Shown here piece after piece: positions 1-21,777 of a DNA stretch of 32,000 bases. Positions within the stretch are counted from its first letter, which is position 1. Each line of letters opens with the position of its first letter. The notes beneath the pieces are model-generated. The model searched no databases. It had not been told where the DNA came from and saw only the letters and a program-made list of their open reading frames with translations. The DNA is taken from contig JBHPIO010000011.1 in the NCBI GenBank assembly GCA_042568575.1, positions 1 through 32,000 on the forward strand, given 5' to 3'. This DNA comes from Patescibacteria group bacterium (lineage in GTDB: Bacteria; Patescibacteriota; Gracilibacteria; UBA1369; PNNO01). The position numbers and the translations under genes were made by a program.

Positions 1-422
1 GACATTTAATTGGAGCGGCTCTAGCTACAATAGTGCTTGGTCCGTTTTCCGGAGTTTTAATTATTTCTGCAGTTCTGGTTTTGCAGGCTTTCCTGTTTGG
101 CGACGGAGGGATTATGGCTTTAGGATCAAATATTATCAATATGGCCATAGTGGCGTCCTTTGTGGCTTACTTTGTTTTTGATAAACTTTTCAGTCTTCCC
201 AAGAAAGTCTCGTTGAAATTTTTTGTTGGAATATTTGTTGCAGCATGGCTTTCTGTGATAGCAGCCTCAACTGTGTGTTCGATTGAATTAATTATAAGCG
301 GACATGGAGGCGTCGAAATTCTCACTTCAATGAACCTTGTTCACGCGCTTATCGGAATTGGAGAAGGAATAATCACTATACTCATCATTGCGCTGTTTTT
401 CCCAAGGCTTTTAAGATCGTAA
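1..422 (+). CDS. cbiM: CbiM/NikM-type ECF cobalt/nickel transporter substrate-capture subunit (5'-partial)
   Basis: The frame is open from base 3 (HLIGAALATIVLGPFSGVLIISAVLVLQAFLFGDGGIMALGSNIINMAIV...). The protein is multi-TM and resembles CbiM/NikM as I remember it. The GTG at 33 in the ORF track is internal; the true N-terminus lies upstream of the window. Confidence 0.75.
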   Translation, partial: HLIGAALATIVLGPFSGVLIISAVLVLQAFLFGDGGIMALGSNIINMAIVASFVAYFVFDKLFSLPKKVSLKFFVGIFVAAWLSVIAASTVCSIELIISGHGGVEILTSMNLVHALIGIGEGIITILIIALFFPRLLRS

Positions 423-434
423 TTTTTTAGAAAT

Positions 435-719
435 ATGCAGAAAAAGAAACTTATCATACTACTTATTTTATCCGTTTTTATAGGACTTGCGTTATCGTTT
501 TTTGCGTCCCCTTCTCCGGATGGACTTGAGCGCATAGCGGAAAATCACTGTTTTATTGAAAGCGCAATAAGCTTTTGGAATGGACTTATGCCGGATTACA
601 CATTCCTAGGGATAGAAAATGAGTGGCTTGCTGTTGGTCTCGCCGGCTTAATTGGAACCATGGCGACATTTTTAGTTTTGTACGGACTTACGTTTGTATT
701 CGTAAAAGTTCAGAAATAG
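435..719 (+). CDS. PDGLE-domain small membrane protein (CbiM-associated accessory component)
   Basis: 94 aa with N- and C-terminal hydrophobic helices and the literal motif SPSPDGLERIAE, the name-giving PDGLE motif. It starts 12 nt after the cbiM stop. Confidence 0.6.
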   Translation: MQKKKLIILLILSVFIGLALSFFASPSPDGLERIAENHCFIESAISFWNGLMPDYTFLGIENEWLAVGLAGLIGTMATFLVLYGLTFVFVKVQK

Positions 720-6418: not shown

Positions 6419-6931
6419 ATGCTCGATCTCATCATCTCTTCTCTCTATTTTATTCTTCCGGCATATGTCGCAAATATGTGTCCGGTGATTTTTGGCAAAC
6501 TTAAATTCCCTTTTGGGAAGCCGATTAGCAAGAAACTTTTTGGTGCGCATAAGACGTATCGTGGCATTTATGTCGCTTATTTTGGCGCGCTTTTAACGTT
6601 ATTCATTCAACAAAAACTCGCGCTAACAGAAATCAGTCTCCTAGATTACGGTACGATTAATCTTTGGCTTTACGCGTTCCTTTTTGGAATTGGAGCAATT
6701 GTCGGCGATCTCGTAAAATCGTATATTAAAAGACGAATAAATATTAAACCTGGTGATCCGTGGATTCCTTTTGATCAACTTGATTTTATTGTTGGAGCAC
6801 TTCTGTTTCTGGCTCCTCTTTATGTTCCTTCATGGGAAGTTATCCTGGTAATAGTTATTGCAACTCCCCTTCTCCATCTTCTAACAAACGTACTTGGATA
6901 CGTTTTGAGGATCAAAAAAGTCTGGTGGTAA
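6419..6931 (+). CDS. CDP-archaeol synthase (CarS/DUF46)-like CTP-transferase membrane protein
   Basis: 170 aa, multi-TM. MLDLI...LPAYVANM..., GAHKTYRG, GDLVKSYIKRR, PFDQLDF and TPLLHLLTNVLGYVLRIKKVWW line up with the archaeal CarS pattern as I remember it (GDxxxSFIKRR, DQL, TPxLH). Confidence 0.65.
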   Translation: MLDLIISSLYFILPAYVANMCPVIFGKLKFPFGKPISKKLFGAHKTYRGIYVAYFGALLTLFIQQKLALTEISLLDYGTINLWLYAFLFGIGAIVGDLVKSYIKRRINIKPGDPWIPFDQLDFIVGALLFLAPLYVPSWEVILVIVIATPLLHLLTNVLGYVLRIKKVWW

Positions 6932-7331: not shown

Positions 7332-7361
7332 TTGTCAAGGCAGAGCTCTTCTCAATTTAAT
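7332..7361 (+). promoter_or_regulatory. Candidate promoter of the hypC-hydE/hydG unit
   Basis: TTGTCA (7332-7337), 18-nt spacer, TTTAAT (7356-7361). If it is used, the ATG at 7360 cannot be the start codon. Confidence 0.3.
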
Positions 7362-7401: not shown

Positions 7402-8661
7402 ATGTGCCTCACAATCCCCGCAAAAGTAGTTGAAGTTAAAGGAGAAAAGGCTGTCATCCAAAAAAATGACAAGCTCCAGGAAATCGATATTCGTACGATC
7501 GAAAACCTTAAAGTAGATGACTGGGTTCTTTATATGTCTGATATTGCTGTGCAAAAAGTTACGCCAGAAGACGCAAAGGAAATTCTTGAGCTACTCGAGC
7601 ACGTACAAAAAACAGATCCTGAAAAACTTGATCCGAAGTTTGTTGAAGTCATTAAACATTCGAAACAGCGAAGGCTTAATAAAGACGAAATCGAGTATCT
7701 TCTTGAAACTGACGGACTTGAAAAAGAGGCTCTTTATAGCGAATCTGAGATGATTCGTCGAACGCACATTAAGGACTTCTTCTGCATTCACGGAATTATT
7801 GAATTTTCTAATTTCTGCCAAAATGACTGCCTCTATTGCGGCCTTCAAAAACAGAATACTGCTATTCGGCGTTATCGAATGCCTATTAATGAAATAGTTG
7901 ATGCAGCTGATGAGGCGGTTAATAAAAAGGGCTATAAGTTGCTAGTTCTTCAGTCTGGCGAAGATCCATATTACACAAAAGAAATGCTTGTTGAACTTAT
8001 TCAAAAAATCAAAGAGAAGTGTAAGGTCTTTATCTTCATGAGTATTGGTGAACGTGATTTTGAAACATACAAGGCAATGAAAGACGCAGGAGCAAGCGGC
8101 GTTCTATTTAGGTTTGAATCGTCTAATCCTGACTTGTTTAAGAAGATTCATCCGGACGGCAAGAGTCTCGAAAAACGTTTTGAGCATTTGAAGTTCATGA
8201 AAGATCTAAAATATTTCATAGCTTCTGGAGGGATTATTGGCATTCCTGGTCAAACTATTTCTGACCTTGCCAATGACATTATTACAATCCGCAATAATGA
8301 TTACGACATGGTTTCGATGGGACCTTTTGTGCCTTGCCCAAATACTCCTTATGCAAATGAAAAGCCCGGCGACATCGAAATGAATCTTAAAATGATTTCT
8401 ACTTTAAGGCTTGAATTAAACAATAAACGAATTCCAGTTGTTACGGCTTTGGAAACTCTCGATCCTGAAAAAGGTCGAAAAAGAGCAATCCAGGCGGGTG
8501 CAAATGCTTTAATGCTCAATGTTACTCCCGAGAAATACGCTCCGCATTACGAGATCTATAAACGAAAACAAGCGCTCGACAATGAGATGTGGGAAAAATA
8601 CGGGTTGTATAATTCTGATGAAAGTTACAAAATGCTTGAAGAAAAATTAACCATCGACTAA
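7402..8661 (+). CDS. hydE: Fusion protein: N-terminal HypC/HupF-like [NiFe]-hydrogenase chaperone domain plus HydE-type radical SAM [FeFe]-hydrogenase maturase
   Basis: From the ATG at 7402 the protein begins MCLTIPAKVVEVKGEKAVIQ...VDDWVLYMSDIAVQKVTPEDAKEILELLE. This carries the HypC signature M-C-[LIV]-x-[IV]-P and the OB-fold pattern. It continues in frame into IIEFSNFCQNDCLYCGLQKQN (CX3CX2C), RYRMPINEIV, LVLQSGEDPYY, GIPGQTISDL and MVSMGPFVPCPNTPYANEKPGD, which closely match Thermotoga HydE from memory. Start 7402 is chosen because HypC function needs Cys at position 2; the track start 7360 and the ATG at 7375 are alternatives. Confidence 0.8.
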   Translation: MCLTIPAKVVEVKGEKAVIQKNDKLQEIDIRTIENLKVDDWVLYMSDIAVQKVTPEDAKEILELLEHVQKTDPEKLDPKFVEVIKHSKQRRLNKDEIEYLLETDGLEKEALYSESEMIRRTHIKDFFCIHGIIEFSNFCQNDCLYCGLQKQNTAIRRYRMPINEIVDAADEAVNKKGYKLLVLQSGEDPYYTKEMLVELIQKIKEKCKVFIFMSIGERDFETYKAMKDAGASGVLFRFESSNPDLFKKIHPDGKSLEKRFEHLKFMKDLKYFIASGGIIGIPGQTISDLANDIITIRNNDYDMVSMGPFVPCPNTPYANEKPGDIEMNLKMISTLRLELNNKRIPVVTALETLDPEKGRKRAIQAGANALMLNVTPEKYAPHYEIYKRKQALDNEMWEKYGLYNSDESYKMLEEKLTID

Positions 8662-10034
8662 TGTCTAAAACTTCACATATATTTGATGCGGATCAAATCA
8701 CGCATCTGGTAAGCTCAACGAAAAATCCTTCAAAGGATACTATTGAAAAAATTCTCCAAAAAGCCAAAAAAATGAGGGGCATCAATTTAGAAGAAGCCGC
8801 AACTTTAATAAACGCAGACAACCCTCATACAGAGGCAATGTTTAAAACGGCGGGATATATTAAAAACGAAATTTACGGAGAGCGGCTGGTTTTATTCGCT
8901 CCTCTTTATATTTCCAATTACTGCATCAACGACTGTGATTATTGTGGATTTCATGCAAGAAATAAACAAAAACGAATTAAGCTTTCTTTAAAGGAGGTTG
9001 AAGAACAAACACGAATTTTGATCAACATGGGGCATAAAAGATTGCTTCTTGAATTTGGGGAGCATCCGGTTGAAGCACCAATCGATTATATAATTGATGT
9101 TATTAAAACTATTTATAGCGTTAAGGAAGGACGCGGAGAGATTCGTCGTTTGAATGTAAATATTGCTGCGACTACAGTTGAGGACTACAAGAAACTGAAA
9201 GCAGCTGAAATTGGAACGTATCAACTTTTCCAGGAAACATATGATCGGGAAACTTATGAGAGACTTCACAAAGGTCCAAAAGGAGATTTTGAAAGGCAGC
9301 TTTTTGCGCATGATAGAGCGTTTGAAGGCGGAATTGATGATGTGGGGCTTGGGGTGCTTTATGGACTTTACGATTGGAAATTCGATACACTTGCTCTTCT
9401 TTCACATGCGTTTTATTTGGATAAGAAATATGGAGTTGGACCTCATACTTTTTCTGTGCCACGCCTCCAATCTGCACCTACTGTTGATGAAGACTGGCCT
9501 TATGAGGTTACTGAGGATGAACTGCTTAAAATAATAGCTATTTTGCGAATGGCAGTACCTTATACCGGCATGATTATTTCAACGCGTGAAAGGGCTGAAA
9601 TTCGTGAGAAGGCGTTTGAACTTGGCATTTCTCAAACAAGTGCTGCGTCGCAAACATCACCGGGTGGATATGGAAAAGAAGAAGCGCTGAATCAATTTAC
9701 AACGTCTGATGAAAGAAGTGTCGATGAAGTAATTGAGAAAATCCTAGATGATGGATTTATGCCGAGTTTTTGCACGGCCTGTTATCGTTTAGGACGGACT
9801 GGCCAGGACTTTATGGATATTGCAAAACCTGGAGAAATTCATAATTTCTGCAGGCCAAATGCGATTCTTACGTTAAAAGAGTATTTGGAGGATTATGCAT
9901 CTGAGCGCTCAAAAGCAAAAGGACTTAAAATAATCGATAAATATGTGGAAAAGATTCCTTCAAATTCTGTTCGTGAAAAAACTGTAAACAGGCTGAAGTT
10001 AATTGAAAAAGGTGAAAGAGATTTATACTTCTAA
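8661..10034 (+). CDS. hydG: HydG-type radical SAM tyrosine lyase (CO/CN-synthon-forming [FeFe]-hydrogenase maturase)
   Basis: 457 aa. LVLFAPLYISNYCINDCDYCGFHARNK and MGHKRLLLEFGEHP are present, plus the HydG-specific C-terminal cluster motif SFCTACYRLGRTGQDFM...FCRPNA, which distinguishes it from ThiH. The ATG overlaps the hydE stop (TAATG). Confidence 0.85.
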   Translation: MSKTSHIFDADQITHLVSSTKNPSKDTIEKILQKAKKMRGINLEEAATLINADNPHTEAMFKTAGYIKNEIYGERLVLFAPLYISNYCINDCDYCGFHARNKQKRIKLSLKEVEEQTRILINMGHKRLLLEFGEHPVEAPIDYIIDVIKTIYSVKEGRGEIRRLNVNIAATTVEDYKKLKAAEIGTYQLFQETYDRETYERLHKGPKGDFERQLFAHDRAFEGGIDDVGLGVLYGLYDWKFDTLALLSHAFYLDKKYGVGPHTFSVPRLQSAPTVDEDWPYEVTEDELLKIIAILRMAVPYTGMIISTRERAEIREKAFELGISQTSAASQTSPGGYGKEEALNQFTTSDERSVDEVIEKILDDGFMPSFCTACYRLGRTGQDFMDIAKPGEIHNFCRPNAILTLKEYLEDYASERSKAKGLKIIDKYVEKIPSNSVREKTVNRLKLIEKGERDLYF

Positions 10035-10035
10035 T

Positions 10036-10064
10036 TTGACAATTTTGAACTTTGTGGCTAAAAT
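10036..10064 (+). promoter_or_regulatory. Near-consensus sigma70 promoter upstream of the PP2C gene
   Basis: TTGACA (10036-10041), exactly 17 nt, TAAAAT (10059-10064). The GTG at 10052 used by the ORF track lies inside the spacer. Confidence 0.5.
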
Positions 10065-10090
10065 TCGCTCCTTGGAAATTAATATCTAAA

Positions 10091-11272
10091 ATGATTGAAG
10101 AAAGCTTGAAAGACCCTGGGAGCAGGAGTAGTAGTGAAAAAAATGGCCATGACCCTGAGCTGCATGAAATTGCAGAGGAATGTGATAGAAATCCAGTAAA
10201 TATATTTGGAGAAGAAACTGGCAATGAAGCAGGTGAGGTTATACAGGCAATTTATGGAATTCCTAATAGCCACTTTGATCAACCGTTAAACTCGCTTGGT
10301 GTTATTCCAGAAGGAATGTACGCTGCAAGTTGCGATGAAGACAGAAGCCTCCGAGATGATGTCCCTGGTGGACTTGTTGAACATGAAGGTGTGATTTTTT
10401 ATGCAACAACCGATCACGGAGTGCTAAGAAGCTGTGACGAACGAAAACCGCACAATGACGATGCATATTTTGTGATTCCTGAACAAAAAACGATTGGTGC
10501 TGCAGATGGCGTTAGTGGGAACCCAAAAAGAAATGATAAAGGACGTATGGCAGCTTCGGTTGCAACACTTGCAGCACTAATGGAAGCGCACCTTGATCTA
10601 CCGATGAGAAAATTAATAGAAATAATGCATGGAGCCGCTTTAAAACATAGATTATTTATAAGAGATCAATGGAAAAAACAAAAACAAAAAAAGGAAAAAG
10701 AGCCTCCAAAAAACTTAACTACAAGCACCGTAGCTCGCCTTAATAATAACAACGTTATTGAGTGTGCAAGTATAGGAAATACACGAGCGTTAGTTATTAG
10801 AGGGGAAAAAGCTCATCGCCTAACTTATGATCACACGATGCTAAATAGCAAAATGGGACATATGGAAATAACTGAAGAGCAAGCTTTTCGTATATTCGGA
10901 CCTTTCGCAATTCGTATGAAAAACAACCTTGTACAAGCGCTTGGGAGTGATGAAAATTTGCATCCTGGCGAAGATCCTGATTCTAATATAAAGCATGTGA
11001 ATATCAAACCTTTCTATGAAACGTTTCAGGCTCAAGGTGGGGATGTTTTATTAATATGTTCGGATGGAGTTACAGATGTTATGACTGACGACGAAATCGC
11101 TGAGTTTGTTTATGAAAGGAGACAAAAAAACATGTCTCTAGCAGAAATAATTGATGAACTTAAAGAGCATGTAATTTATCTAATGAAATACAGTCGCAAT
11201 GGGGATCATGAATATCCAAATAAACACGATGGCGACAACATTGTGATAGTCGGACTCGTTGTTCCGGAATAA
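10091..11272 (+). CDS. PP2C/PPM-family Ser/Thr protein phosphatase with an about 120-aa acidic N-terminal extension
   Basis: NDDAYFV, GAADGVSG, LLICSDGVTDVMTDDEI and a C-terminal GDNIVIVGL are the PPM motifs. The start is set to the first ATG downstream of the promoter. Confidence 0.75.
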   Translation: MIEESLKDPGSRSSSEKNGHDPELHEIAEECDRNPVNIFGEETGNEAGEVIQAIYGIPNSHFDQPLNSLGVIPEGMYAASCDEDRSLRDDVPGGLVEHEGVIFYATTDHGVLRSCDERKPHNDDAYFVIPEQKTIGAADGVSGNPKRNDKGRMAASVATLAALMEAHLDLPMRKLIEIMHGAALKHRLFIRDQWKKQKQKKEKEPPKNLTTSTVARLNNNNVIECASIGNTRALVIRGEKAHRLTYDHTMLNSKMGHMEITEEQAFRIFGPFAIRMKNNLVQALGSDENLHPGEDPDSNIKHVNIKPFYETFQAQGGDVLLICSDGVTDVMTDDEIAEFVYERRQKNMSLAEIIDELKEHVIYLMKYSRNGDHEYPNKHDGDNIVIVGLVVPE

Positions 11273-11323
11273 TTATTTCTAAAATGTTGCGAAGGATGTC
11301 TTTTTGATATATCTTATTCATCG

Positions 11324-11854
11324 ATGTCTGAACAACAAAAAAAATTAAAAATAGGCTGGTTTTCCTTTACGTGCTGTGAAGATTCAACAATCATGTTCAC
11401 AGAAATGTTGAACGACCATTTTTTTGCGTGGTCTAAAATTATTGAATTTAGACATGCAAATATCCTCAAAAGTAAAAATGAGATGTCTGATATCGATGTA
11501 GCTTTTGTTGAAGGAGCTATCGCTTCTGATCGCGATAAAGAAAAACTTTTAAAAATCCGAGACGTTTCTAAGTATATTGTTGCAATTGGATCTTGCGCTG
11601 TAACAGGCCTTCCAACAGGACATCGAAACAATTTCAGCGAAGAAATGAAAGAAGAAATTTCGCCTTATCTAAAGCAATTTCATCAAAGTGCACGTGTATA
11701 TGCCCTTCACGAACTTATCCAAGTAGACGATAAAGTAGCAGGCTGCCCAATGATCGAAGCACAATTCGTAGTAGCCATCGACAAATATCTAAAAATGTTC
11801 AAAGTCATCTCCGAAGATGATTCAATAATCAACCACAAAAATGCATCAGATTAA
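11324..11854 (+). CDS. [NiFe]-hydrogenase small subunit, minimal (NuoB/HoxY-like, single-cluster) form
   Basis: 176 aa with exactly four Cys, located in FTCCEDS, IGSCAVTG and VAGCPM. This is the proximal [4Fe-4S] ligand pattern of the oxidored_q6 family. There is no region for medial or distal clusters. It overlaps the large-subunit gene by 14 nt. Confidence 0.75.
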   Translation: MSEQQKKLKIGWFSFTCCEDSTIMFTEMLNDHFFAWSKIIEFRHANILKSKNEMSDIDVAFVEGAIASDRDKEKLLKIRDVSKYIVAIGSCAVTGLPTGHRNNFSEEMKEEISPYLKQFHQSARVYALHELIQVDDKVAGCPMIEAQFVVAIDKYLKMFKVISEDDSIINHKNASD

Positions 11855-13154
11855 TATATCGATTGAAGGATTATCTAAAATTGAAGGACATCTGGATATG
11901 GATGTTGTTATTAAGGATAACAAGATTACAGATGTTGAATTTAAGATTATGGAGAATAAGAGATTTTTTGAAAAAGCAATTCTTGGGAAGCCTTTCAATC
12001 AGGTTCCACAGCTGCTTTCACGTATTTGCGGAACGTGCAGTATTGCGCATCTCCTAGGTGCAATTGAAGCTGTTGAAGACGCTCTTGATTACAAGCCATC
12101 CGAACAGACAATGATATTAAGAAAGCTTCTCACATATGGACTGATGATACGCGATCACGCACTTCATCTTTATATCTTCACATTGCCGGATGTTATCGGC
12201 AAGGATTCGATTCTTGATTTTGACGAGAATGACGAGAGAGAACACAAATTGCTCCACGACATGTTTGACGTAAAACGTGCCGGAAACAACTTATCTACAA
12301 TCATAGGAGGACGTGCAGTACATGCGCCTTTCCCAATGCCCGGAGGGTTCGTTAAATATCCAACTCAAGAAGAGCTGGAAGCTTCACGCAAAGAGCTTTT
12401 AGAAATGCGTGAAAAAATTCTCTACCTACTTCAGGTTTTCGATGAATGTGATTTCAGTCTTGAAAGAAAAACTAAATTCGTAGGTCTTAAAACTGAAGAT
12501 TATAGTTTCTTGGATGGTCCTGCATTATGTAGTGAAGGAAATTTTTGTGTTCCAGAAAAGAGTTTTAGAGATCAATTAAAAGAAGTTGTAATCCCCTACT
12601 CAACAGCTAAGGCATACACTTTGCAGGGCGAAGAATACATGGTTGGAGCTCTAGCTCGAATGAATGTAAATCGAGAGGCTCTCCACCCAAATACTCAAAA
12701 AGATGCAAAGAAATATATAGACAGATTTCCTTCAATTGACGTTTATCATAACAACCTTGCACAGGCTATCGAGACTCTTCATTCGATAGATCATGCAGTT
12801 GAGATTCTTGAAACACTAAAGATCACGCCTGTTCCACCGGATAAGCTTACTCCAAAAGCAGGTGAAGGAGTGGGAGTTCTTGAAGCACCTCGTGGAACTT
12901 TGTATCACTATGTTGCTACTGACGCTGAAGGAATTATTACAAAAGCTGAAGTTGTGGTTCCAACTGCGCAAAATCAAATCAATATTGAAAATGATATTCG
13001 CGCACTAGTCCAACTACATCTTGATAAGGATGGAGAGAATATGGATAAAGATCTAGTTCGCTTTGAAATCGAGAAGTTAATTCGCGCATACGACCCATGT
13101 ATGAGTTGTGCAACTCACTTTTTGAAGATTAATTGGCAAATTCATGGAAGTTAA
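11841..13154 (+). CDS. [NiFe]-hydrogenase large (catalytic) subunit, group 3-like
   Basis: 437 aa. LSKIEGHLD, the N-terminal RICGTCSIAH (RxCGxCxxxH) and the C-terminal DPCMSCATH (DPCxxCxxH) are present. An 11-aa tail, FLKINWQIHGS, follows and is the kind removed by the maturation endopeptidase. Confidence 0.88.
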   Translation: MHQINISIEGLSKIEGHLDMDVVIKDNKITDVEFKIMENKRFFEKAILGKPFNQVPQLLSRICGTCSIAHLLGAIEAVEDALDYKPSEQTMILRKLLTYGLMIRDHALHLYIFTLPDVIGKDSILDFDENDEREHKLLHDMFDVKRAGNNLSTIIGGRAVHAPFPMPGGFVKYPTQEELEASRKELLEMREKILYLLQVFDECDFSLERKTKFVGLKTEDYSFLDGPALCSEGNFCVPEKSFRDQLKEVVIPYSTAKAYTLQGEEYMVGALARMNVNREALHPNTQKDAKKYIDRFPSIDVYHNNLAQAIETLHSIDHAVEILETLKITPVPPDKLTPKAGEGVGVLEAPRGTLYHYVATDAEGIITKAEVVVPTAQNQINIENDIRALVQLHLDKDGENMDKDLVRFEIEKLIRAYDPCMSCATHFLKINWQIHGS

Positions 13155-13620
13155 ATTTCGCACAGCAGGCTTAGGCGATATTAAGGATCTACAAACCCTT
13201 AAGTACGATCTTTGGAAGTATGAAGACGATAATTTTTGCGATATCACAGATCCAAATTATGCAAAAACAGATAAATATGCTGAAGATCTAAAAAAACAAA
13301 TAGAAGACCCTGGTTTTGCAATTATTGTTGCTGAGTATGAAGATGAGATAATTGGTGCCGTTTATGGCGAAGTCTTTGAAGCGACAAAATATAAAAGGAT
13401 CAAAATTGACTCCGAACTGATGAGTCTTTACGTGAAGGAAGAGCATCGAAATAAGAAGATCGGAGCAAAACTTGTTGATGAGTTTACTAAATGGGCAAAA
13501 AGCAAAAACGCAGATCAGATTAAGGTAGAACCTTATTATAATAATGAGGGATCCTTAAGATTCTATGAACGCGAGGGTTTTGAAGGTTATGTTGTTATGT
13601 TGAGGAAGAAGCTGAAATAA
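13144..13620 (+). CDS. GNAT-family N-acetyltransferase
   Basis: 158 aa. IIGAVYGEV, LMSLYVKEEHRNKKIGAKLVDEF (motif A) and NNEGSLRFYEREGFEG are present. The ATG overlaps the last 11 nt of the hydrogenase large-subunit gene. Confidence 0.8.
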   Translation: MEVKFRTAGLGDIKDLQTLKYDLWKYEDDNFCDITDPNYAKTDKYAEDLKKQIEDPGFAIIVAEYEDEIIGAVYGEVFEATKYKRIKIDSELMSLYVKEEHRNKKIGAKLVDEFTKWAKSKNADQIKVEPYYNNEGSLRFYEREGFEGYVVMLRKKLK

Positions 13621-13643
13621 TCTAGGATACACACCTATCTAGA

Positions 13644-13672
13644 TTGGCAAAATCGCCTTTTTGTGCTATTCT
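13644..13672 (+). promoter_or_regulatory. Candidate promoter of acidic-protein paralogue 1
   Basis: TTGGCA (13644-13649), 17 nt, TATTCT (13667-13672) with TG-C just upstream. The whole block is duplicated at 14365-14393. Confidence 0.4.
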
Positions 13673-13697
13673 ATTAAGAATTACTAATCAAGTATTT

Positions 13698-14336
13698 ATG
13701 AATGCTGAACCAGCACATGGTGAGTCTAGTGAATCTCAAGATTCACTTATAAATAAACTCATCGATAGAACATTTGAAGTCCTTGGACAAGCAGATGCTA
13801 ATCAAGAACAGAGAGAAGAATTAGCAAAACAAGTCGTTGAAAAGCTAAGTGAATATGATGAAGAAACTGCACATGAAGCTTTATTAAGAATGACAGACAG
13901 TCTTAATCCCGGCGAAATTGATAACGAAGCACATATGCTTATGTTTCTTGGATGGGAAGCTAATGCAATTCTTGATGAAAAAAAGCCACCTATTGAGCTC
14001 GATGAGGGAGATGAAGTTATTGCTGAACACGCAATCGCAAAACTTAAAGGATTACGAACAGTTAATATAAATGTCTTTTCCGATGTAAGTGAAGCCCTCG
14101 ATACGATAATTAGCACTGAAATATCTCCTGATATAGAAGATAACGAAGCAGTATTCCCAGAAATCGAAGATAGTATGACTTTTGGGGAAGCAAAAGAAAT
14201 CATATCTAAAAATGCGCCACTTTTGGCTATTAGGCCAAATACAACAACTGCAGACATAGATTACAGACTCCTTGGAACGATTCGTGATCGAATGGAGGAT
14301 GAAATTGGACAAGATATTGAACAAAGTAGGAATTAA
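13698..14336 (+). CDS. Acidic hypothetical protein, paralogue 1
   Basis: MNAEPAHGESSESQDSLINKLIDRTFEVLGQADANQEQREEL...HEALLRMTDSLNPGE aligns with paralogue 2. The start is set to the ATG equivalent to the paralogue-2 start; the TTG at 13644 in the track is the -35 hexamer. Confidence 0.6.
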   Translation: MNAEPAHGESSESQDSLINKLIDRTFEVLGQADANQEQREELAKQVVEKLSEYDEETAHEALLRMTDSLNPGEIDNEAHMLMFLGWEANAILDEKKPPIELDEGDEVIAEHAIAKLKGLRTVNINVFSDVSEALDTIISTEISPDIEDNEAVFPEIEDSMTFGEAKEIISKNAPLLAIRPNTTTADIDYRLLGTIRDRMEDEIGQDIEQSRN

Positions 14337-14364
14337 ATAAATTCTTCCGGCGGAACTCTTATGA

Positions 14365-14393
14365 TTTGCAAAATTATCTTTTTGTGCTATATA
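14365..14393 (+). promoter_or_regulatory. Candidate promoter of acidic-protein paralogue 2
   Basis: TTTGCA (14365-14370), 17 nt, TATATA (14388-14393) preceded by TGC (extended -10 like). It shares GCAAAAT..TCTTTTTGTGCTAT with the 13644 copy. Confidence 0.4.
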
Positions 14394-14417
14394 AGATGAG
14401 ACATTATTCCAGAATTT

Positions 14418-15059
14418 ATGACTGCAGAACTTGCACATTGTGAAAATAACGAATCTAACGAATCTACGGATTCGCTTGTAACTAAATTGGTTGATAGAAC
14501 ATTAGAATCTTTGGGGCAGGCAGACGCTCAAAATAGCCAAAAAGAAGAATTAGGTCTTTTCATAGAAGCAGAATTACATGGTTTCGACGCAGATACCGCA
14601 AGAGATGCGCTTCTAAGAATGAGGCATAGCTTAATGCCAGATTCTCCTAACTTTCAACAAATTGCAAGTGCAAAAATGATGCTTCAATTGCTTAAAAGAG
14701 AAGCTTTAGAACTTAGAGAAGCAAGGCAAACTCCAAATGAACTCCCAAACTTAAATGAATTGAAAATAAATCAAGGACTATCAAGACTCAAAGAATTGCT
14801 TGTAATGGATGAAGAAGCATATAATCGTGTTTATAGCGCGTTAGAGCAATTTACAACAATTCTAATTGAGGACTATCAAGAAAATGACCAACCAATTTTA
14901 GAAGATGTAGGATGGGAAACTTTTGGAGAAGTTAAGCTTACCTTGGAATATCATATGCCATTTCTGTGCATAACTTTCTTAACAAGACCCACTGAAATAA
15001 ATATTGAAATATTGTCAGAAATTCTAGACCGTTTTAATGAAGACGCTGATTTGGCTTAG
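14418..15059 (+). CDS. Acidic hypothetical protein, paralogue 2
   Basis: MTAELAHCENNESNESTDSLVTKLVDRTLESLGQADAQNSQKEEL...RDALLRMRHSLMPDS is clearly homologous to paralogue 1. Its 3' end overlaps the convergent endopeptidase gene by 36 nt. Confidence 0.6.
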   Translation: MTAELAHCENNESNESTDSLVTKLVDRTLESLGQADAQNSQKEELGLFIEAELHGFDADTARDALLRMRHSLMPDSPNFQQIASAKMMLQLLKREALELREARQTPNELPNLNELKINQGLSRLKELLVMDEEAYNRVYSALEQFTTILIEDYQENDQPILEDVGWETFGEVKLTLEYHMPFLCITFLTRPTEINIEILSEILDRFNEDADLA

Positions 15060-15404
15060 AATATCATTAGTATTTCCTTCCGGCGGCACCCCGATTATTT
15101 TCACCTCGTTAATCATTCTTAGTTTTTTGTACAGTTTAAGTTGCCATCCAAGATCAAAGTCATGCATGGAATATGGCTTTTCTGTAACGAAATCCTCGAC
15201 TTTTGTAAAAACGTGAGGCTTTTTTAAACCCTCAACTGTATCTATTAGAACTAGTTCATCGGTGTCTTCTGGAAGGTTTTCGGTTGGATCAAATTCCCTA
15301 AAATCGATTTCCGGAAAAGCTTCACGCAATTGCGATGCAAGTTTGAGTGGCATTGAATCTTCTTCAACAAGTAGATTCCCAACTAGATATATTATTTGAG
15401 ACAT
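15024..15404 (-). CDS. Hydrogenase maturation endopeptidase (HycI/HoxW/FrhD family)
   Basis: 126 aa. The N-terminal IYLVGNLLVEEDSMPLKLA matches the GNxLxxDD pattern, followed by LVLIDTV and SMHDFDL (catalytic-site His). Size and context fit next to a large subunit with a C-terminal extension. Confidence 0.65.
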   Translation of the reverse strand: MSQIIYLVGNLLVEEDSMPLKLASQLREAFPEIDFREFDPTENLPEDTDELVLIDTVEGLKKPHVFTKVEDFVTEKPYSMHDFDLGWQLKLYKKLRMINEVKIIGVPPEGNTNDILSQISVFIKTV

Positions 15405-15492: not shown

Positions 15493-15723
15493 ATGACTAA
15501 AGAAGTATCAACTTGTCCACAACTTATTACAACAGAACCATTTCAACTACATCCAAAACCTACTATAAAAGCAGATGGTGAGATAGTAAGTGTAAGTAAA
15601 CTACAAACTCCAGAGTGTAGAGCCATGTCCCATTGTAGCGATACAATTAGAATAGATTTTAATCATGCAGTAAAAGTTTGCATGAGTGATGATCATGTAA
15701 ATTGTCCTCAATTCAGAGGCTAG
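15493..15723 (+). CDS. Small Cys-rich hypothetical protein (76 aa)
   Basis: It uses the first ATG after the promoter. Five Cys are present (C8, C42, C48, C63, C71). No family recognised and no obvious SD. Its stop TAG shares the tetranucleotide CTAG with the stop of the convergent ATPase gene. Confidence 0.35.
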   Translation: MTKEVSTCPQLITTEPFQLHPKPTIKADGEIVSVSKLQTPECRAMSHCSDTIRIDFNHAVKVCMSDDHVNCPQFRG

Positions 15724-17990
15724 ATCATCGGTTCCTCGAAATCTTCCGGCTGATCACCAGGCGCCAATTCAATTTCACCTGACTCATCCCACTTGGAAAG
15801 CATGTCTTCAACTTTAGCTACTGGAGTTGAGTATTTCTTTCGAGACTGTTCTACAATTTCTTTAGTGTAATCGTCTTTTGGCTTAACCACATCGAGAGTT
15901 CGGCCTGAGAACGGCCTTCGTACTTCTCCTTTTATGGACATCTTTGTGTAGAAATTTCGAACCGCAAGATTGATAATATCACGAACTTTAAATACCGGAG
16001 TGTACTCATTTTCCAAAACTACGGCATCGTCAGCACCTACACGGAATGTGATCATTGAGCCAACATTACCAAATACAGTCTTTACCATCTGATCAGTTAA
16101 TTGCCCCACAAACTGATGGGCAATCGTTAAATTTAATCTATATTTACGTGCCTCAGATAAAATTTCTTCAAAAGTATCTGTAGCAAAGTTCTGGAACTCA
16201 TCCACATAGAAGTAGAAATCAGTTCGATCCTCTTCTCGCATATCAGCACGACTCATTGCTGCCTGATACATTTTCGTAATAATCATAGCTCCGATCAAAT
16301 TCGAGTTTTCTTCTCCAAGTAGACCTTTAGACACCTTCATCAATAGGATCTTCTTTTTATCCATTACTTCTCGAATGTTGAATTTGTTAGTTGGTTGACC
16401 AATAATATTTCTAATCATGTTCGTTGCAACAAACTGACCAACTTTATTCAAAAGAGGTGTAATTGCCTCAGCATCAAATTTTTCACTCCATCCAGCAAAC
16501 TCGTTCACCCAGAAGTTTTTAACGACCGAATCTTTAATTCTGGCTGTGATCGTTTGTCTGTAATTCTTGTCCGAAAGCATCTTTAAGATACTCAAAACAG
16601 TTGTGTTTGGTGAGTCAAGAAGCGCCAGAGTTGTGTATCTTAAAACGTGTTCGAGCCTGTCACTCCAGTTTGAACCGAATAGCTTTTTAAAGATATTAAT
16701 AAACCCGACAGTCATCTGCATCTTGTATGCTTCATCAACCTTCTCCAGTGGATTAAACGCAATCGGGAAGTTTGTATCTCCAGGATCAAAATAAACTACA
16801 TCATTAATACGATCTTCTGGGATCATCTGCATAATATTATCAACAAGATCTCCATGAGGATCCAAAACCGCTACACCTTCACCATTTTTAATATCTTCAC
16901 TAATAAAAAGTTCAAGTAGTTTACTTTTCCCTGTACCACTCTTACCTACTGTATAAAGATGTCTTCTTCTGTCTTCACGTTTTATTCCAAAATCATCAAA
17001 CGAATTATGATAATTTGTTTTACCAAAGAAACTCACATCTTTGCCTCGAGTTTTTGGAAGATCCTGAGGCGGTTCCGCCTTTTTAGATAAGACATGGACG
17101 ATATGCGGCACATGGTCAGAATTTGGAAAATGATATAAAGTCGCCAGTTCCTTTGCGCTTAAGATCTGATCTTCATCCATATTTCTCTTTCGGAATGACT
17201 CCAAAAAGGATTTTGCACGAATTGGTCTGCCTGCGACAAACTCATTGAAGTCAATTTTATTATACTGATAAAACGCCTTCGAAATGGCTTCCAAACGAGC
17301 ATTGGCAAGTTGTTGATCTTTAGCAAAACATGCCAGTCGTACCTGGAACTTGAATGGATGAGTTGCCGTTTTTTCAATAAATGCCTTCTTCTCTTCTTCA
17401 AAGAATTCCTTTCTTCCCTTTAGCCTTGTGTAGTTTTTAAGGCGGAATACCCTTTTGATTCCGTTAAAGAACATGCGAAATCTCCGTTGTAAATGATAAA
17501 GCCAGTTGTCATGTTTAGGTGAAACAAGAATTTGAACCCAAAGTTGTTCATCCTGTCCTATTTTTGAAATAACCGCAAAGGCTCCTGCCAAACTATCTAC
17601 TTCAAAATCTTCATAATCGAGAATTGGATAAATGTCGCTCCTTTTTAATTTAAGCTTTGCTCCAGCAAAAGGAAGTTTTTGAGTTATTGCAAAATTAGTA
17701 TAATCCTTGCTATCAATAATTTCGCAATCCGGAAAAGTACTATATAAAAGCCCTTCAACAAGCGCAAAAAGATCAGCCGGCGCTACAATATAGAAATAAG
17801 AATATTGCCTATATCCAAATACTTCAAGACTAATTGTGCGACCTTTAATGGATTTATAAAGGTTATTCAGAAACTGAAGAAATTTTACTTCCTTTTTAGG
17901 ATCAGCTTCTGTTCCTTGAGGGACTACTACATGTAAATATTTTAGATCCATGTGAGGCTTTAAAAAATGTACCGTTGCATCGTGACACAT
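15720..17990 (-). CDS. VirD4/TraD-like (TraG_D_C / DUF87-type) P-loop ATPase with a large non-membrane N-terminal domain
   Basis: 756 aa. Walker A is YTVGKSGTGKSKLL, followed by AVLDPHGDL, Walker B FYFYVDEFQNF and ARKYRLNLTIAHQFVGQL, typical of type IV coupling-protein-like ATPases. No N-terminal TM helices. The start could be the ATG at 17951 (MDLKYL...). Confidence 0.65.
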   Translation of the reverse strand: MCHDATVHFLKPHMDLKYLHVVVPQGTEADPKKEVKFLQFLNNLYKSIKGRTISLEVFGYRQYSYFYIVAPADLFALVEGLLYSTFPDCEIIDSKDYTNFAITQKLPFAGAKLKLKRSDIYPILDYEDFEVDSLAGAFAVISKIGQDEQLWVQILVSPKHDNWLYHLQRRFRMFFNGIKRVFRLKNYTRLKGRKEFFEEEKKAFIEKTATHPFKFQVRLACFAKDQQLANARLEAISKAFYQYNKIDFNEFVAGRPIRAKSFLESFRKRNMDEDQILSAKELATLYHFPNSDHVPHIVHVLSKKAEPPQDLPKTRGKDVSFFGKTNYHNSFDDFGIKREDRRRHLYTVGKSGTGKSKLLELFISEDIKNGEGVAVLDPHGDLVDNIMQMIPEDRINDVVYFDPGDTNFPIAFNPLEKVDEAYKMQMTVGFINIFKKLFGSNWSDRLEHVLRYTTLALLDSPNTTVLSILKMLSDKNYRQTITARIKDSVVKNFWVNEFAGWSEKFDAEAITPLLNKVGQFVATNMIRNIIGQPTNKFNIREVMDKKKILLMKVSKGLLGEENSNLIGAMIITKMYQAAMSRADMREEDRTDFYFYVDEFQNFATDTFEEILSEARKYRLNLTIAHQFVGQLTDQMVKTVFGNVGSMITFRVGADDAVVLENEYTPVFKVRDIINLAVRNFYTKMSIKGEVRRPFSGRTLDVVKPKDDYTKEIVEQSRKKYSTPVAKVEDMLSKWDESGEIELAPGDQPEDFEEPMI

Positions 17991-18097
17991 TTTATTTTAT
18001 AATATTTTTTTGCACAATTTGCAAGCTCAAATTTATTTATTTACAAAATAACACACAAATGCTAAATTTACACCGCAAATAACATATAATTCAATAT

Positions 18098-18430
18098 ATG
18101 AGTACAACTGACGACAACCCCACGTCAGACGACAAGCCTCCCCCTAATTTAGGAATCTCTAGAGATGTGAAAAGAGTAATTCGAAAACTCTCAGATAGTT
18201 ACGAGCTGCGTGACTATGCTTTTCATATTGCGGCATATCATGCACAACATCTAACTGATGAGGCAGCAGGGTTTCGAAATCGCCTTTTGCTACAGGGACT
18301 GGATGAAGAGGACCTCTTTACTATTCATGAGTTTCTGAACATAAAGTTTGATGGCGAACTTATGAAAATGTATGACAAAAATCTCACAGAACAAAGAGCT
18401 GAGATGCTTGGATCATTTATTACTAAGTAG
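18098..18430 (+). CDS. Hypothetical protein (110 aa)
   Basis: Clean ORF in an otherwise empty interval. No motif recognised. Confidence 0.4.
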   Translation: MSTTDDNPTSDDKPPPNLGISRDVKRVIRKLSDSYELRDYAFHIAAYHAQHLTDEAAGFRNRLLLQGLDEEDLFTIHEFLNIKFDGELMKMYDKNLTEQRAEMLGSFITK

Positions 18431-18432
18431 GC

Positions 18433-18816
18433 TTATTTTTTACCGCATTTACCGCATTTACCGAATGCGTTTATATATGCATCTTCGATATTGAAGTCTT
18501 TTACCCAGCTTAAACAGGAAACACATTTAAAGCTGGCTGGCTTGAAAACATTCTGTATATCACCACATTGGCTGCAAATAAGATGATGATGCGGTCTTTC
18601 TTCTGCTTCATATACAGCTCTTTCTGAAGAAATAACAACTTTTCTTATTTTCCCAGAATGTTCAAGAACCCCAAGATTTCTATAAACTGTTCCAAAACTA
18701 ATCTTTGGAGCTTTCTTCTTTACGATTTTATATATCTCATCAGCAGTAAGGTGAGAATCTGCCTTCTTAAGCTCTTCAAATATAAGCTCCCTCTGATGAG
18801 AATATCGTTGCTGCAT
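18433..18816 (-). CDS. fur: Fur-family metalloregulator (Fur/Zur/PerR/Nur type)
   Basis: The winged-helix part is HLTADEIYKIVKKKAPKISFGTVYRNLGVLEHSGKIRKV, followed by HHHLICSQCGDI and the C-terminal CGKCGK CxxC pairs. The start is set to the ATG at 18816; the track uses the TTG one codon upstream. Confidence 0.8.
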   Translation of the reverse strand: MQQRYSHQRELIFEELKKADSHLTADEIYKIVKKKAPKISFGTVYRNLGVLEHSGKIRKVVISSERAVYEAEERPHHHLICSQCGDIQNVFKPASFKCVSCLSWVKDFNIEDAYINAFGKCGKCGKK

Positions 18817-18917
18817 CAATAATGATTAATGGTCGTTCCCATTGTAAGGCTAAACACTTGCTTTTTCAATAAAACAAATTATGATTAGACATGAAACATA
18901 TTATAACAATCTAGCTT

Positions 18918-20472: not shown

Positions 20473-21777
20473 ATGAAATACCAAGACTCATTTCACTACA
20501 TAGATGAGAATTATACTCCGAAAGATTCGGATGTGATTTGCTTGTATCGTTTTGTTCCAAAACCAGGAACTAGTGTTGAAGAAGCTGCAGAGCAAATTGC
20601 TGCGGAATCTTCAATTGGTACATGGACAAAGATTTCAACAATGAACGAACACATTGCAAACACCCTTAAACCTCATATTTTTGCTTTAGACAAAGTGAAA
20701 GGATTAGTGAAAATTGCTTATCCAATTGGACTTTTTGAGATTGGAAATATGTCTGGGATCCTTTCTTCAATTTGCGGGAATATCCTGGGAATGAAAATTC
20801 TGGAAGAACTGAGAGTTTGTGACATCAAATTTCCAAAAGACGTTATCGAGAAATTTCCCGGGCCAGCTCTTGGAATCGAAGGAATCAGAAAAACCGTTAA
20901 CGTTTACGACCGTCCTTTTACAGGAACGATTGTGAAGCCAAAAGTTGGACTAACTAGCGAACAGCATGCGGAAGTCGGTTATCAAGCGTGGTCAGGTAAT
21001 GAAGGACAAGGTCTTGATATCGTTAAAGACGATGAGAATCTTACTTCTCAGACTTTCAATAGTTTTGATAAAAGAATGGAGCTTACACTAGCAATGAAGA
21101 AAAAAGTTGAAGAGGAAACAGGGCAAAAGAAATTTTATCTTGCAAACATCACTCACTCGAATTTTGATGAAATGATGCGAAGAAGTGATCTTGTTAAAAG
21201 TCTTGGAGGTCATGTATGTATGCTTGATGTTGTGACTCTTGGATTCGCAGCAGTTGAAAGTTACAGACGAAAAAACACTGGTCAAATTATTCATGCTCAT
21301 AGGGCAATGCATGGAGCTATTACAAGGGAACCTGGATTTACAGTTTCGATGCTTGTTCTTTCTAAGGTTTATAGAATGCTTGGAGTCGATCTACTTCATA
21401 CTGGAACTGCAGGCGCTGGAAAAATGGAAGGTGGAGCTCTTGAGACAATGACAATCGTTGATGCACTTGAGAAAGACTCTGTACCTGAAGATCCAAAAGC
21501 AGAATCTCTCGGACAAGAATGGTACGGAATGAAGCCAGTTTTGGCTGTTGCTTCAGGCGGATTACATCCAGGGAAAATCCCGTTAGTCGTTGAGAAAATG
21601 GGAATTGATATCGTTTGCCAAATGGGTGGAGGTTGTCATGGACATCCGGATGGAACTGCTGTTGGTGCTCAAGGAATTGTTCAAGCTACTGAAGCTGCTG
21701 TAAAAGGAATCCCAATTGAAGAATATGCTCAGGATAAGCCAGCTCTAAAGAAAGCACTAGAAAAATGGGGAGTGTAA
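20473..21777 (+). CDS. rbcL: RuBisCO large subunit, form III or II/III type
   Basis: 434 aa. GTIVKPKVGL, GLDIVKDDENL (carbamylated Lys motif), HAHRAMHGA and GGGCHGHPDG are present. There is no small-subunit gene. Size and motifs fit the archaeal/CPR nucleotide-salvage type. Confidence 0.88.
   Translation: MKYQDSFHYIDENYTPKDSDVICLYRFVPKPGTSVEEAAEQIAAESSIGTWTKISTMNEHIANTLKPHIFALDKVKGLVKIAYPIGLFEIGNMSGILSSICGNILGMKILEELRVCDIKFPKDVIEKFPGPALGIEGIRKTVNVYDRPFTGTIVKPKVGLTSEQHAEVGYQAWSGNEGQGLDIVKDDENLTSQTFNSFDKRMELTLAMKKKVEEETGQKKFYLANITHSNFDEMMRRSDLVKSLGGHVCMLDVVTLGFAAVESYRRKNTGQIIHAHRAMHGAITREPGFTVSMLVLSKVYRMLGVDLLHTGTAGAGKMEGGALETMTIVDALEKDSVPEDPKAESLGQEWYGMKPVLAVASGGLHPGKIPLVVEKMGIDIVCQMGGGCHGHPDGTAVGAQGIVQATEAAVKGIPIEEYAQDKPALKKALEKWGV

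Follow-up and report, generated by a model that had tools for sequence, protein, structure and literature searches.

A conserved HypC-HydE fusion coupled to HydG may link two hydrogenase maturation systems in bacteria and archaea

Introduction

Why should the genes of a [NiFe] hydrogenase be accompanied by maturases of the [FeFe] pathway, one of them fused to a [NiFe] chaperone domain? The question is raised by a stretch of 32,000 nucleotides from a Patescibacteria group bacterium (assembly GCA_042568575.1, contig JBHPIO010000011.1, positions 1 to 32,000), here called the window, in whose positions all gene coordinates are given. It encodes a protein with an N-terminal HypC-like and a C-terminal HydE-like domain, followed by hydG and, further downstream, by the small and large subunit genes of a [NiFe] hydrogenase. 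We found the fusion to be a conserved, monophyletic family and not an artefact, and we propose that together with HydG it probably serves the [NiFe] enzyme.

[NiFe] and [FeFe] hydrogenases are regarded as convergent enzymes that are matured separately. For the former, cyanide is made by HypE and HypF from carbamoyl phosphate and delivered to HypC-HypD; for the latter, CO and cyanide derived from tyrosine are provided via HydG and HydE. HydG makes [Fe(II)(Cys)(CO)2(CN)], and a direct hand-over of this compound to HydE is possible (PMC11826987). In HydE, a 5'-deoxyadenosyl radical adds to the cysteine sulfur and the S-Cβ bond is cleaved; in the Thermotoga maritima enzyme (TmHydE), M224 is the residue on which an Fe(I)(CO)2(CN)S intermediate is retained, and K309 acts in the radical relay (PMC11826987).

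A first-pass annotation of the window had suggested two roles for the fusion: a physical link between the two systems, in which HypC hands an Fe-CO/CN unit to the [NiFe] large subunit, or the recruitment of HypC into [FeFe] maturation. Here we follow both ideas through profile searches, structure prediction and comparison of gene neighbourhoods.

Results

One gene encodes a complete HypC domain and a complete HydE

The open reading frame (ORF) 7360/7402..8661 (+) is open throughout, without a stop between its halves, and encodes 419 aa when read from 7402. The HypC/HupF domain (aa ~1-73, nt 7402-7620) is followed by a helical linker and the HydE radical S-adenosylmethionine (SAM) barrel (aa ~87-398, nt 7660-8595). 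Residues 1-65 cover positions 1-65/65 of PF01455 with 59.6 bits (cut-off 28.5), and TIGR00074 scored 48.7 bits on the whole protein and 52.9 bits on the domain alone (cut-off 48). Residues 87-398 match the HydE model TIGR03956 with 266.2 bits (cut-off 254.6). Both halves lie above curated cut-offs, the HypC half with both of its models, and the first-pass annotation of an uninterrupted ORF joining a HypC/HupF-like domain to a full HydE is borne out.

Homologues begin at MCLTIP, and M1, C2, L3 and P6 are invariant in 24/24 aligned homologues. The true start is therefore 7402, and the upstream ATG at 7360 was ruled out. Across loci, the fused proteins open with MC[LY][TA][IL]P, and the invariant M1-C2 confirms that the HypC cysteine directly follows the ATG at 7402. 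After removal of Met, Cys2 is the N-terminal residue, which is the hallmark of HypC. The fused gene of one locus (L019, at 10001) appears to have an Ile codon before the conserved CLTIPG, which represents either a non-canonical start or a sequencing error.

Among known structures, the fusion matched TmHydE with E = 4e-73 (residues 82-390) and HypC of Thermococcus kodakarensis (2z1c) with E = 8e-8. An AlphaFold2 model was confident (mean predicted local distance difference test score 88, predicted TM-score 0.88) and shows a β-rich N-terminal domain, the helical linker and a barrel superposable on TmHydE, which was also the top Foldseek match (target-normalised TM-score 0.85-0.92). The cysteines of the radical SAM motif CX3CX2C (C139, C143, C146) are invariant in the 24-member alignment. 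M303 of the fusion aligns with TmHydE M224 and is likewise invariant; K389 aligns with TmHydE K309 and is K or R in the family.

hydG is translationally coupled to the fusion gene

The downstream gene hydG (8661..10034, +) encodes a radical SAM tyrosine lyase of 457 aa. It scored 570.7 bits with TIGR03955 (cut-off 312) and only 289.6 bits with the ThiH model (cut-off 380), and it matched the structure 4wcx with 551 bits over residues 15-457. The C-terminal auxiliary-cluster motif CX2CX22C, present in CTACYRLGRTGQDFMDIAKPGEIHNFC, is kept in 37/37 HydGs adjoining fusions and is missing from ThiH. A His of the window protein lines up with the one in the 'LYHANH' stretch of 4wcx and may correspond to the dangler-iron ligand of crystallised HydG, presumably His265. 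The start of hydG overlaps the stop of the fusion gene (TAATG, as GAC-TAATG-TCT in GACTAATGTCT), and the two genes are translationally coupled. The overlap and the TIGR03955 score both agree with the earlier description of a hydG with a TAATG stop/start overlap and a C-terminal cluster motif. In a tree of HydG proteins the fusion-adjacent sequences do not separate cleanly, the best fusion-associated clade containing 27/37 of them; no conclusion was drawn from this tree.

The fusion is a conserved and monophyletic family

A search of 5.8 billion proteins gave 1047 matches, of which the best 120 (clusters at 90% identity) were examined. All of them (120/120; 54-88% identity) combine PF01455 with PF04055, and they come from the lgn, jgi, ncbi and ena sources. 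When 1.84 billion representatives were searched exhaustively, ~20 of the best 150 clusters examined at 50% identity proved to be fused; two of these are ~900 aa long and, according to Pfam, are HypC-HydE-HydG triple fusions. Scanning one genome per species yielded 80 loci, to whose HydE ORFs a hidden Markov model (HMM) of the HypC domain was applied. The HypC-HydE architecture was thus found in 61 non-redundant loci of species-representative genomes. In these relatives the same fusion recurs and its halves are never parted by a stop or a frameshift, contrary to what the first-pass annotation had named as a possible sign of an assembly error.

Proteins of the MCLTIP N-terminal type are found mostly in metagenome-assembled genomes (MAGs) labelled as Candidate Phyla Radiation (CPR). 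According to MAG labels, the MCYAIPG type occurs in DPANN archaea, Margulisiibacteriota/Saganbacteria, Omnitrophota, Elusimicrobia, Scalindua and other Planctomycetes, Nitrospirae, WOR-3 and Desantisbacteria. A neighbour-joining tree of the HydE domain groups all fused sequences together, in a clade that excludes 18 canonical HydEs. Two seemingly unfused members fall inside this clade. One, at L066, is a fused gene cut by the contig end. The other, at L047 (Parcubacteria GW2011_GWA2_38_13b), is a truly unfused HydE whose gene adjoins hydG and the genes of a four-subunit 3b hydrogenase; the 21 kb of this locus contain no detectable HypC ORF, and its HydG carries the variant motif CTACEFQGRMG.

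The HypC-HydE-HydG triple fusions are L017/P0121 (881 aa), P0130 (906 aa) and L141 (923 aa). Other domain combinations were also seen: in P0151, P0154 and P0180 HydE is preceded by a PF11823 'Se/S carrier-like' domain, P0148 is a HydE-HydG fusion of 803 aa without HypC, and P0192 joins HydE to dephospho-CoA kinase. Small carrier domains at the N-terminus of HydE may be a recurring feature.

In public databases the fused proteins are named '[FeFe] hydrogenase maturase HydE' or 'biotin synthase'. For this reason the fusion has been overlooked in annotation, and surveys that use HydE and HydG as markers of [FeFe] maturation misread these lineages. The first-pass annotation knew of no described HypC-HydE fusion, and the searchable full text, which leaves out subscription-only literature, likewise yielded no published account of the fusion or of [NiFe] maturation linked to HydE or HydG. 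None of the searchable papers naming both HypC and HydG reports either; a Cell 2024 paper on archaeal hydrogenases surveys HydEFG, with the fusion absent from its text, and genome papers on Margulisbacteria and Peribacteria do not discuss maturation.

Fused genes often lie near [NiFe] genes and in no sampled locus near HydA, HydF or HypD/E/F

To compare gene neighbourhoods we used 84 loci, 81 after removal of duplicates, in which ORFs were clustered and identified by Pfam, Escherichia coli Hyp references and H-cluster motifs. Counts refer to ±10 kb around the gene at 61 fused loci (952 kb) and 20 unfused loci (323 kb); L066 was counted among the latter, though its gene is a truncated fusion. 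HydG was present near 37/61 fused and 14/20 unfused genes. A [NiFe] large subunit was encoded at 35/61 fused loci and at a single unfused locus (1/20, L047; Fisher p = 2e-5, a descriptive value), and a small subunit at 30/61 and 2/20. HycI-type protease genes (24/61), hypA (11/61) and hypB (3/61) were found at fused loci, and each of the three at 0/20 unfused loci. HydF was found at 0/61 fused and 10/20 unfused loci (Fisher p = 1e-7, again descriptive), HydA, recognised by its three H-cluster motifs, at 0/61 and 4/20, and an aspartate ammonia-lyase-like gene also at 0/61 and 4/20. HypD, HypE and HypF were each missing from all 61 fused loci; the respective counts at the 20 unfused loci were 0, 1 and 0.

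The window fits this pattern. Neither Pfam searches of ORFs of at least 90 aa nor HMM and phmmer scans of six-frame ORFs of at least 35 aa detected HydA, HydF, HypA, HypB, HypD, HypE, HypF or a second HypC in it, so that the absence of HydA, HydF and HypA/B/D/E/F noted at first holds also for small ORFs.

Three loci (L037, L044, L052) show the arrangement hyhB-hyhG-hyhS-hyhL-hycI-hypA-[hypC-hydE]-hydG, in which hyhB and hyhG encode diaphorase subunits; L044 has an additional upstream rex gene. For comparison, the E. coli run is hypA-hypB-hypC-hypD-hypE. In nine loci (L018, L023, L029, L037, L044, L048, L051, L052, L054) the HypA-like genes are short (~80-94 aa), and in L037, L044, L051, L052 and L054 they lie directly upstream of the fusion. 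They keep the MHE/MHD N-terminus and lack the two CxxC pairs of the zinc domain; full-length HypA in L035, L079 and L080 has both.

We also took a reverse sample of 80 metagenomic loci picked from the large-subunit side. In no locus of this sample did the fusion occur together with HypD/E/F, and most loci have neither. HypD, HypE and/or HypF were found in 5/80 loci, showing that their detection works with this method.

The fused HypC domain lacks the canonical histidine

In canonical HypC, His51 (E. coli numbering) acts together with Cys2 in iron binding and in the chemistry of HypC with HypD. None of the 60 aligned fused domains (0/60) has His at this position. Instead, Gln is found in 39, Thr in 7, Met in 6, Ile in 3, Val and Ser in 2 each and Ala in 1; the window protein has Met. 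Free HypC proteins encoded beside HypD/E/F have His (L118, L130, L135), and free HypC-like proteins beside hydrogenases of the window type have Gln or Ser (L087, L095, L097, L102). At three loci a His-type free HypC is encoded directly upstream of the fusion (L011 100-315, L014 9807-10010, L024 10001-10234), giving two HypC types per operon.

The hydrogenase next to the fusion and its candidate protease

The large subunit gene (11841..13154, +) encodes a group 3b-like protein of 437 aa (PF00374, 117 bits). It contains RICGTCSIAH and DPCMSCATH, the latter seen in DPCMSCATHFLKINWQIHGS, and an 11-residue C-terminal extension beyond the final His; all four Cys ligands and the EAPRG motif are standard. 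The closest structures are T. kodakarensis HyhL (5yxy, E = 6e-68) and Pyrococcus furiosus sulfhydrogenase I alpha, and the best NCBIfam match was ShyA with 267.8 bits, below the cut-off of 700. Among fusion-adjacent large subunits, RxCGxCxxxH and DPCxxCxx(H/R) are intact in 35/38. Four of them end in DPCxxCTER and are tentatively read, from this motif, as group 4-like. Several CPR large subunits have no residues beyond the final His, and the three such loci that were mapped (L013, L017, L022) showed no protease gene nearby.

The small subunit gene (11324..11854, +; Oxidored_q6, PF01058, 65.7 bits) encodes 176 aa. Its best NCBIfam matches are sulfhydrogenase delta subunits, below cut-offs, and a protein 82% identical is present in L001. 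Its cysteines C17, C18, C91 and C141, the first two adjacent in TCCEDS, suffice for one proximal [4Fe-4S] cluster only. Such minimal small subunits, with 176-189 aa and four Cys, are the Peregrinibacteria type (window, L001, L007, L087-L106). No FAD/NAD or Fe-S diaphorase subunits are encoded in the window or in the loci of its Peregrinibacteria relatives; other phyla with the fusion have four-subunit 3b operons including both diaphorase subunits.

The ORF at 15024..15404 (-) encodes 126 aa. Single-sequence profile searches gave no Pfam match and only a weak one to TIGR00072 (E = 4e-4, below cut-off). Alignment to HycI by hhalign reached a probability of 97% (E = 8e-11), and an HMM built from HycI proteins of other fusion loci also matched with E = 8e-11. 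D16, D55 and H81 do not vary within the family and align to conserved HycI positions, which we take to be those of the acidic/acidic/His metal-binding triad in the HybD structure. A profile of the family against the PDB gave a marginal match only (E = 0.27), and the HycI-type call is based on the hhalign match rather than on this search. We classify the protein as a compact HycI-type maturation endopeptidase. It stays beside the hydrogenase in L001, L007, L025, L030 and L087-L106, and in the closest relatives of the window hydrogenase (45-55% identity) the small subunit, the large subunit and a compact protease are arranged in the same way. Profiles, motifs and hhalign thus substantiate the [NiFe] small/large pair and the [NiFe]-type endopeptidase named in the first-pass annotation.

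Other features of the window

A gene for a PP2C-type Ser/Thr phosphatase (10052..11272, +; PF00481, E = 1e-14; start codon uncertain) separates hydG from the hydrogenase genes. The initial gene map was correct in every detail checked and had missed this gene. It is shared with the closest relative, L010 (57% identity), and no PP2C gene lies at this place in L001 or L007. Downstream of the large subunit gene, and overlapping its end, lies a GNAT acetyltransferase gene (13144..13620, +; PF00583, 59 bits), whose position is kept in the Peregrinibacteria relatives L001 and L002. According to the ORF listing, the fusion, hydG, PP2C, small and large subunit and GNAT genes are all co-directional (+).

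Between the GNAT and protease genes lie two tandem ORFs, 13644..14336 and 14418..15059 (both +), which encode acidic paralogues (36% identity, E = 9e-31). Family searches gave no match for them, nor did tblastn against 85 fetched loci; L001 and L007 have an unrelated ORF at this place.

At the left edge, the window encodes a CbiM-like protein (33-422, +; PF01891, 104.6 bits; cut by the window edge) and a PDGLE-domain protein (435-719, +; PF13190, 64.8 bits). The pair (33..719) is possibly a nickel/cobalt uptake module loosely tied to the hydrogenase system. Look-ups of exact protein matches for the genes at the window edges gave no recorded entry. A 605-nt group I intron (match to Rfam RF00028 with 64.7 bits at 1219-1409) splits a tRNA-Ser(UGA) gene (790-1471) at position 38; inside the intron, an HNH endonuclease ORF (832-1197) lies on the opposite strand.

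A 756 aa protein resembling VirD4/TraG coupling proteins of type IV secretion systems is encoded at 15720-17990 (-). It adjoins the hydrogenase cluster in the window as well as in L001, where the protein is 78% identical (16396-18627). Other genes encode a CarS-like CDP-archaeol synthase (6419-6931), a Fur-family regulator (18433-18819, -) and a RuBisCO large subunit (20473-21777), probably the form II/III enzyme of CPR nucleotide salvage; NusB, RNase III and YceD are also encoded. Together, the NusB, RNase III, YceD, RuBisCO and CarS-like genes suggest a CPR bacterium. The best named database matches are from Peregrinibacteria and other Patescibacteria.

Discussion

A radical SAM route to the [NiFe] site

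We consider it probable, if well short of certain, that HydG and the HypC-HydE fusion form a radical SAM route which builds the Fe-CO/CN unit of the [NiFe] site and replaces HypC-HypD-HypE-HypF. The comparative evidence supports the link between the two maturation systems that the first-pass annotation had suggested, with HypC handing Fe-CO/CN to the [NiFe] large subunit: the family is monophyletic, it is co-located with [NiFe] genes, HycI, HypA and HypB, and triple fusions exist. A bypass of HypE and HypF is the most likely interpretation and rests on their absence within the flanks of the 61 fused loci.

In the proposed mechanism, HydG would cleave tyrosine and use its C-terminal cluster to assemble the Fe(CO)2(CN)(cysteinate) synthon, as its conserved motifs suggest. 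The synthon would pass to the HydE barrel, where, judging from the conserved residues, a 5'-deoxyadenosyl radical would strip the cysteine backbone to leave Fe(I)(CO)2(CN)-S. Since the mechanistic residues and CX2CX22C are kept and the barrel model is confident, we expect these two steps to follow the course known from [FeFe] maturation. In place of dimerisation and transfer to HydF, the thiolate of the N-terminal Cys2 in the tethered HypC domain might then capture the mononuclear iron unit. By analogy with known HypC function, the HypC domain would dock on the apo large subunit and insert the iron unit. Nickel insertion would follow, by HypA/HypB where present, and the compact HycI-type protease would finally trim the C-terminal extension.

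The strictest form of this proposal is a fourth, chimeric and self-sufficient hydrogenase maturation pathway in which the Fe-CO/CN unit of the [NiFe] site comes wholly from tyrosine, via HydG and a dedicated HydE paralogue with a fused, His-less HypC, in genomes without HypD/E/F. We put it forward tentatively, as a serious possibility. Its scope would be CPR, DPANN, Margulisiibacteriota/Saganbacteria, Omnitrophota, some Planctomycetes and Nitrospirae, and its clients group 3b and some group 4-like enzymes. The product may have a non-canonical ligand set, or (CO)(CN)2 may be reached by means of surplus cyanide from HydG.

Several observations weigh against a radical SAM route to the [NiFe] site. 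The ligands do not match, the HydG synthon being Fe(CO)2(CN) and the [NiFe] site containing Fe(CO)(CN)2. HydE of the [FeFe] pathway leaves a sulfide on the iron and its product is thought to form a dimer; neither fits a [NiFe] site. No hydrogenase is seen in the flanks of 26/61 fused loci, some of which lie on short contigs, and the distant relatives L003 and L004 carry the fusion alone. Seen from the large subunit, the association is weak: the fusion is present in only 3/80 loci of the reverse sample (L100, L125, L141). Genes for HypD/E/F, HydF or HydA may be located in other parts of these genomes, and a more complex relay is possible because L011, L014 and L024 carry an extra His-type HypC. 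The Fisher tests ignore shared ancestry and so overstate independence. Finally, all data come from MAGs, some of whose taxonomic labels are probably mis-binned, and the family is known from sequences and genomes alone.

Alternative explanations

The window is a single sequence, so that a merger of hypC and hydE by sequencing error or annotation, with their order due to chance, was conceivable beforehand. With the same architecture in at least 120 clusters from lgn, jgi, ncbi and ena and in 61 loci, a conserved linker and a confident AlphaFold2 model, this explanation is ruled out for practical purposes. A biological alternative is that HydG and HypC-HydE provide only CO or an Fe-CO unit under anoxic conditions, and that HypD/E/F encoded elsewhere supply the cyanides. 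Where the CO comes from in anaerobic [NiFe] maturation is an open question. HydG has been proven to generate CO (PMC11826987). Such a division of labour would resolve the mismatch in ligand count, and it could make sense of the canonical His-type HypC beside the fusion in three loci; moreover, the absence of HypD/E/F was established for ±10 kb flanks. We nevertheless judge this partial replacement unlikely: HypD/E/F are missing from 61/61 fused loci, including those whose operon brings together HypA, HypB and HycI, the fused HypC is devoid of the His51 equivalent that canonical HypC uses with HypD, and many carriers are CPR or DPANN organisms with very small genomes.

The client itself might also be different from what we propose. 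The large subunit could be of [NiFe] type and hold a non-canonical cofactor, for example Ni-Fe(CO)2(CN), or a sulfide-bridged or di-iron site, and would then not be a standard [NiFe] enzyme. HydG/HydE chemistry naturally gives Fe(CO)2(CN)-S, the HydE residues for S-C cleavage are kept, and no cyanide-adding HypE/F is encoded near fused genes. But the four Cys ligands, the EAPRG motif and the extension with its HycI-type protease are all standard, the nickel insertases HypA/HypB co-occur, and the fusion also serves large subunits read as group 4-type, which makes such a cofactor improbable. A client of the other class, an [FeFe] hydrogenase encoded elsewhere, with the HypC domain standing in for HydF and the proximity of [NiFe] genes incidental, is the second role that had been suggested at the outset. 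HydE and HydG have no known role outside [FeFe] maturation, and 26/61 fused loci show no [NiFe] genes in their flanks. Many archaea with active [FeFe] hydrogenases have no full HydEFG set, for which an alternative pathway was proposed (PMC11216029). However, within ±10 kb HydA and HydF are both at 0/61 in the fused set as against 4/20 and 10/20 in the unfused one, the fusion is embedded in [NiFe] operons between hypA or hycI and hydG, and HypC is a chaperone of the [NiFe] large subunit. This role is accordingly disfavoured, and we see very little chance that it is correct.

Implications

If HydG and HydE are indeed wired to HypC and [NiFe] clients, this would be the first bridge between the two maturation machineries. 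It bears on the open origin of the CO ligand in [NiFe] hydrogenases under anoxic conditions; a version restricted to CO, if true, would still be new and would bear on the same source. Genome-reduced CPR and DPANN organisms could, if the proposal holds, mature hydrogenases with far fewer genes, and a compact set of two to three genes could aid the heterologous production of [NiFe] hydrogenases.

Comparison with known maturation systems

All parts of the system belong to known families; their combination and the client are undescribed. Like the HypCDEF pathway (hypABCDE and hypF in E. coli), the system has as its client a [NiFe] large subunit with four Cys and C-terminal processing, it uses a HypC fold whose invariant Cys comes to stand at the N-terminus when Met is cleaved off, and HypA, HypB and a HycI-type protease are found as helpers in fusion operons. 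It differs in that neither the HypD scaffold nor the carbamoyl-phosphate machinery of HypE and HypF is present near the 61 fused loci, that its HypC is covalently joined to a radical SAM enzyme and has no equivalent of His51, and that the proposed source of the ligands is tyrosine instead of carbamoyl phosphate.

With the HydE-HydF-HydG pathway it shares proteins that pass the equivalog models, the cluster motifs and M224/K309 counterparts, and the translational coupling. In contrast to that pathway, HydF, HydA and the aspartate ammonia-lyase-like gene are missing near the fused form, HydF being present at half of the unfused loci; the fused HydEs form their own clade, and the proposed client is a [NiFe] enzyme.

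HypX offers a parallel as an accessory to [NiFe] maturation which provides one diatomic ligand, CO, by way of a non-canonical precursor, formyl-tetrahydrofolate. Family and chemistry are unrelated, though, and HypX works with HypCDEF in aerobes, whereas the present system appears to have no HypDEF nearby and the lineages that carry it are known mainly as anaerobes. The closest architectural parallels are the HydE-HydF fusion of Chlamydomonas and the HydE-HydG and Se/S-carrier-HydE fusions, in which consecutive maturation steps are likewise united in one polypeptide. Those fusions stay within the [FeFe] tool-kit, whereas HypC-HydE joins two different hydrogenase maturation systems.

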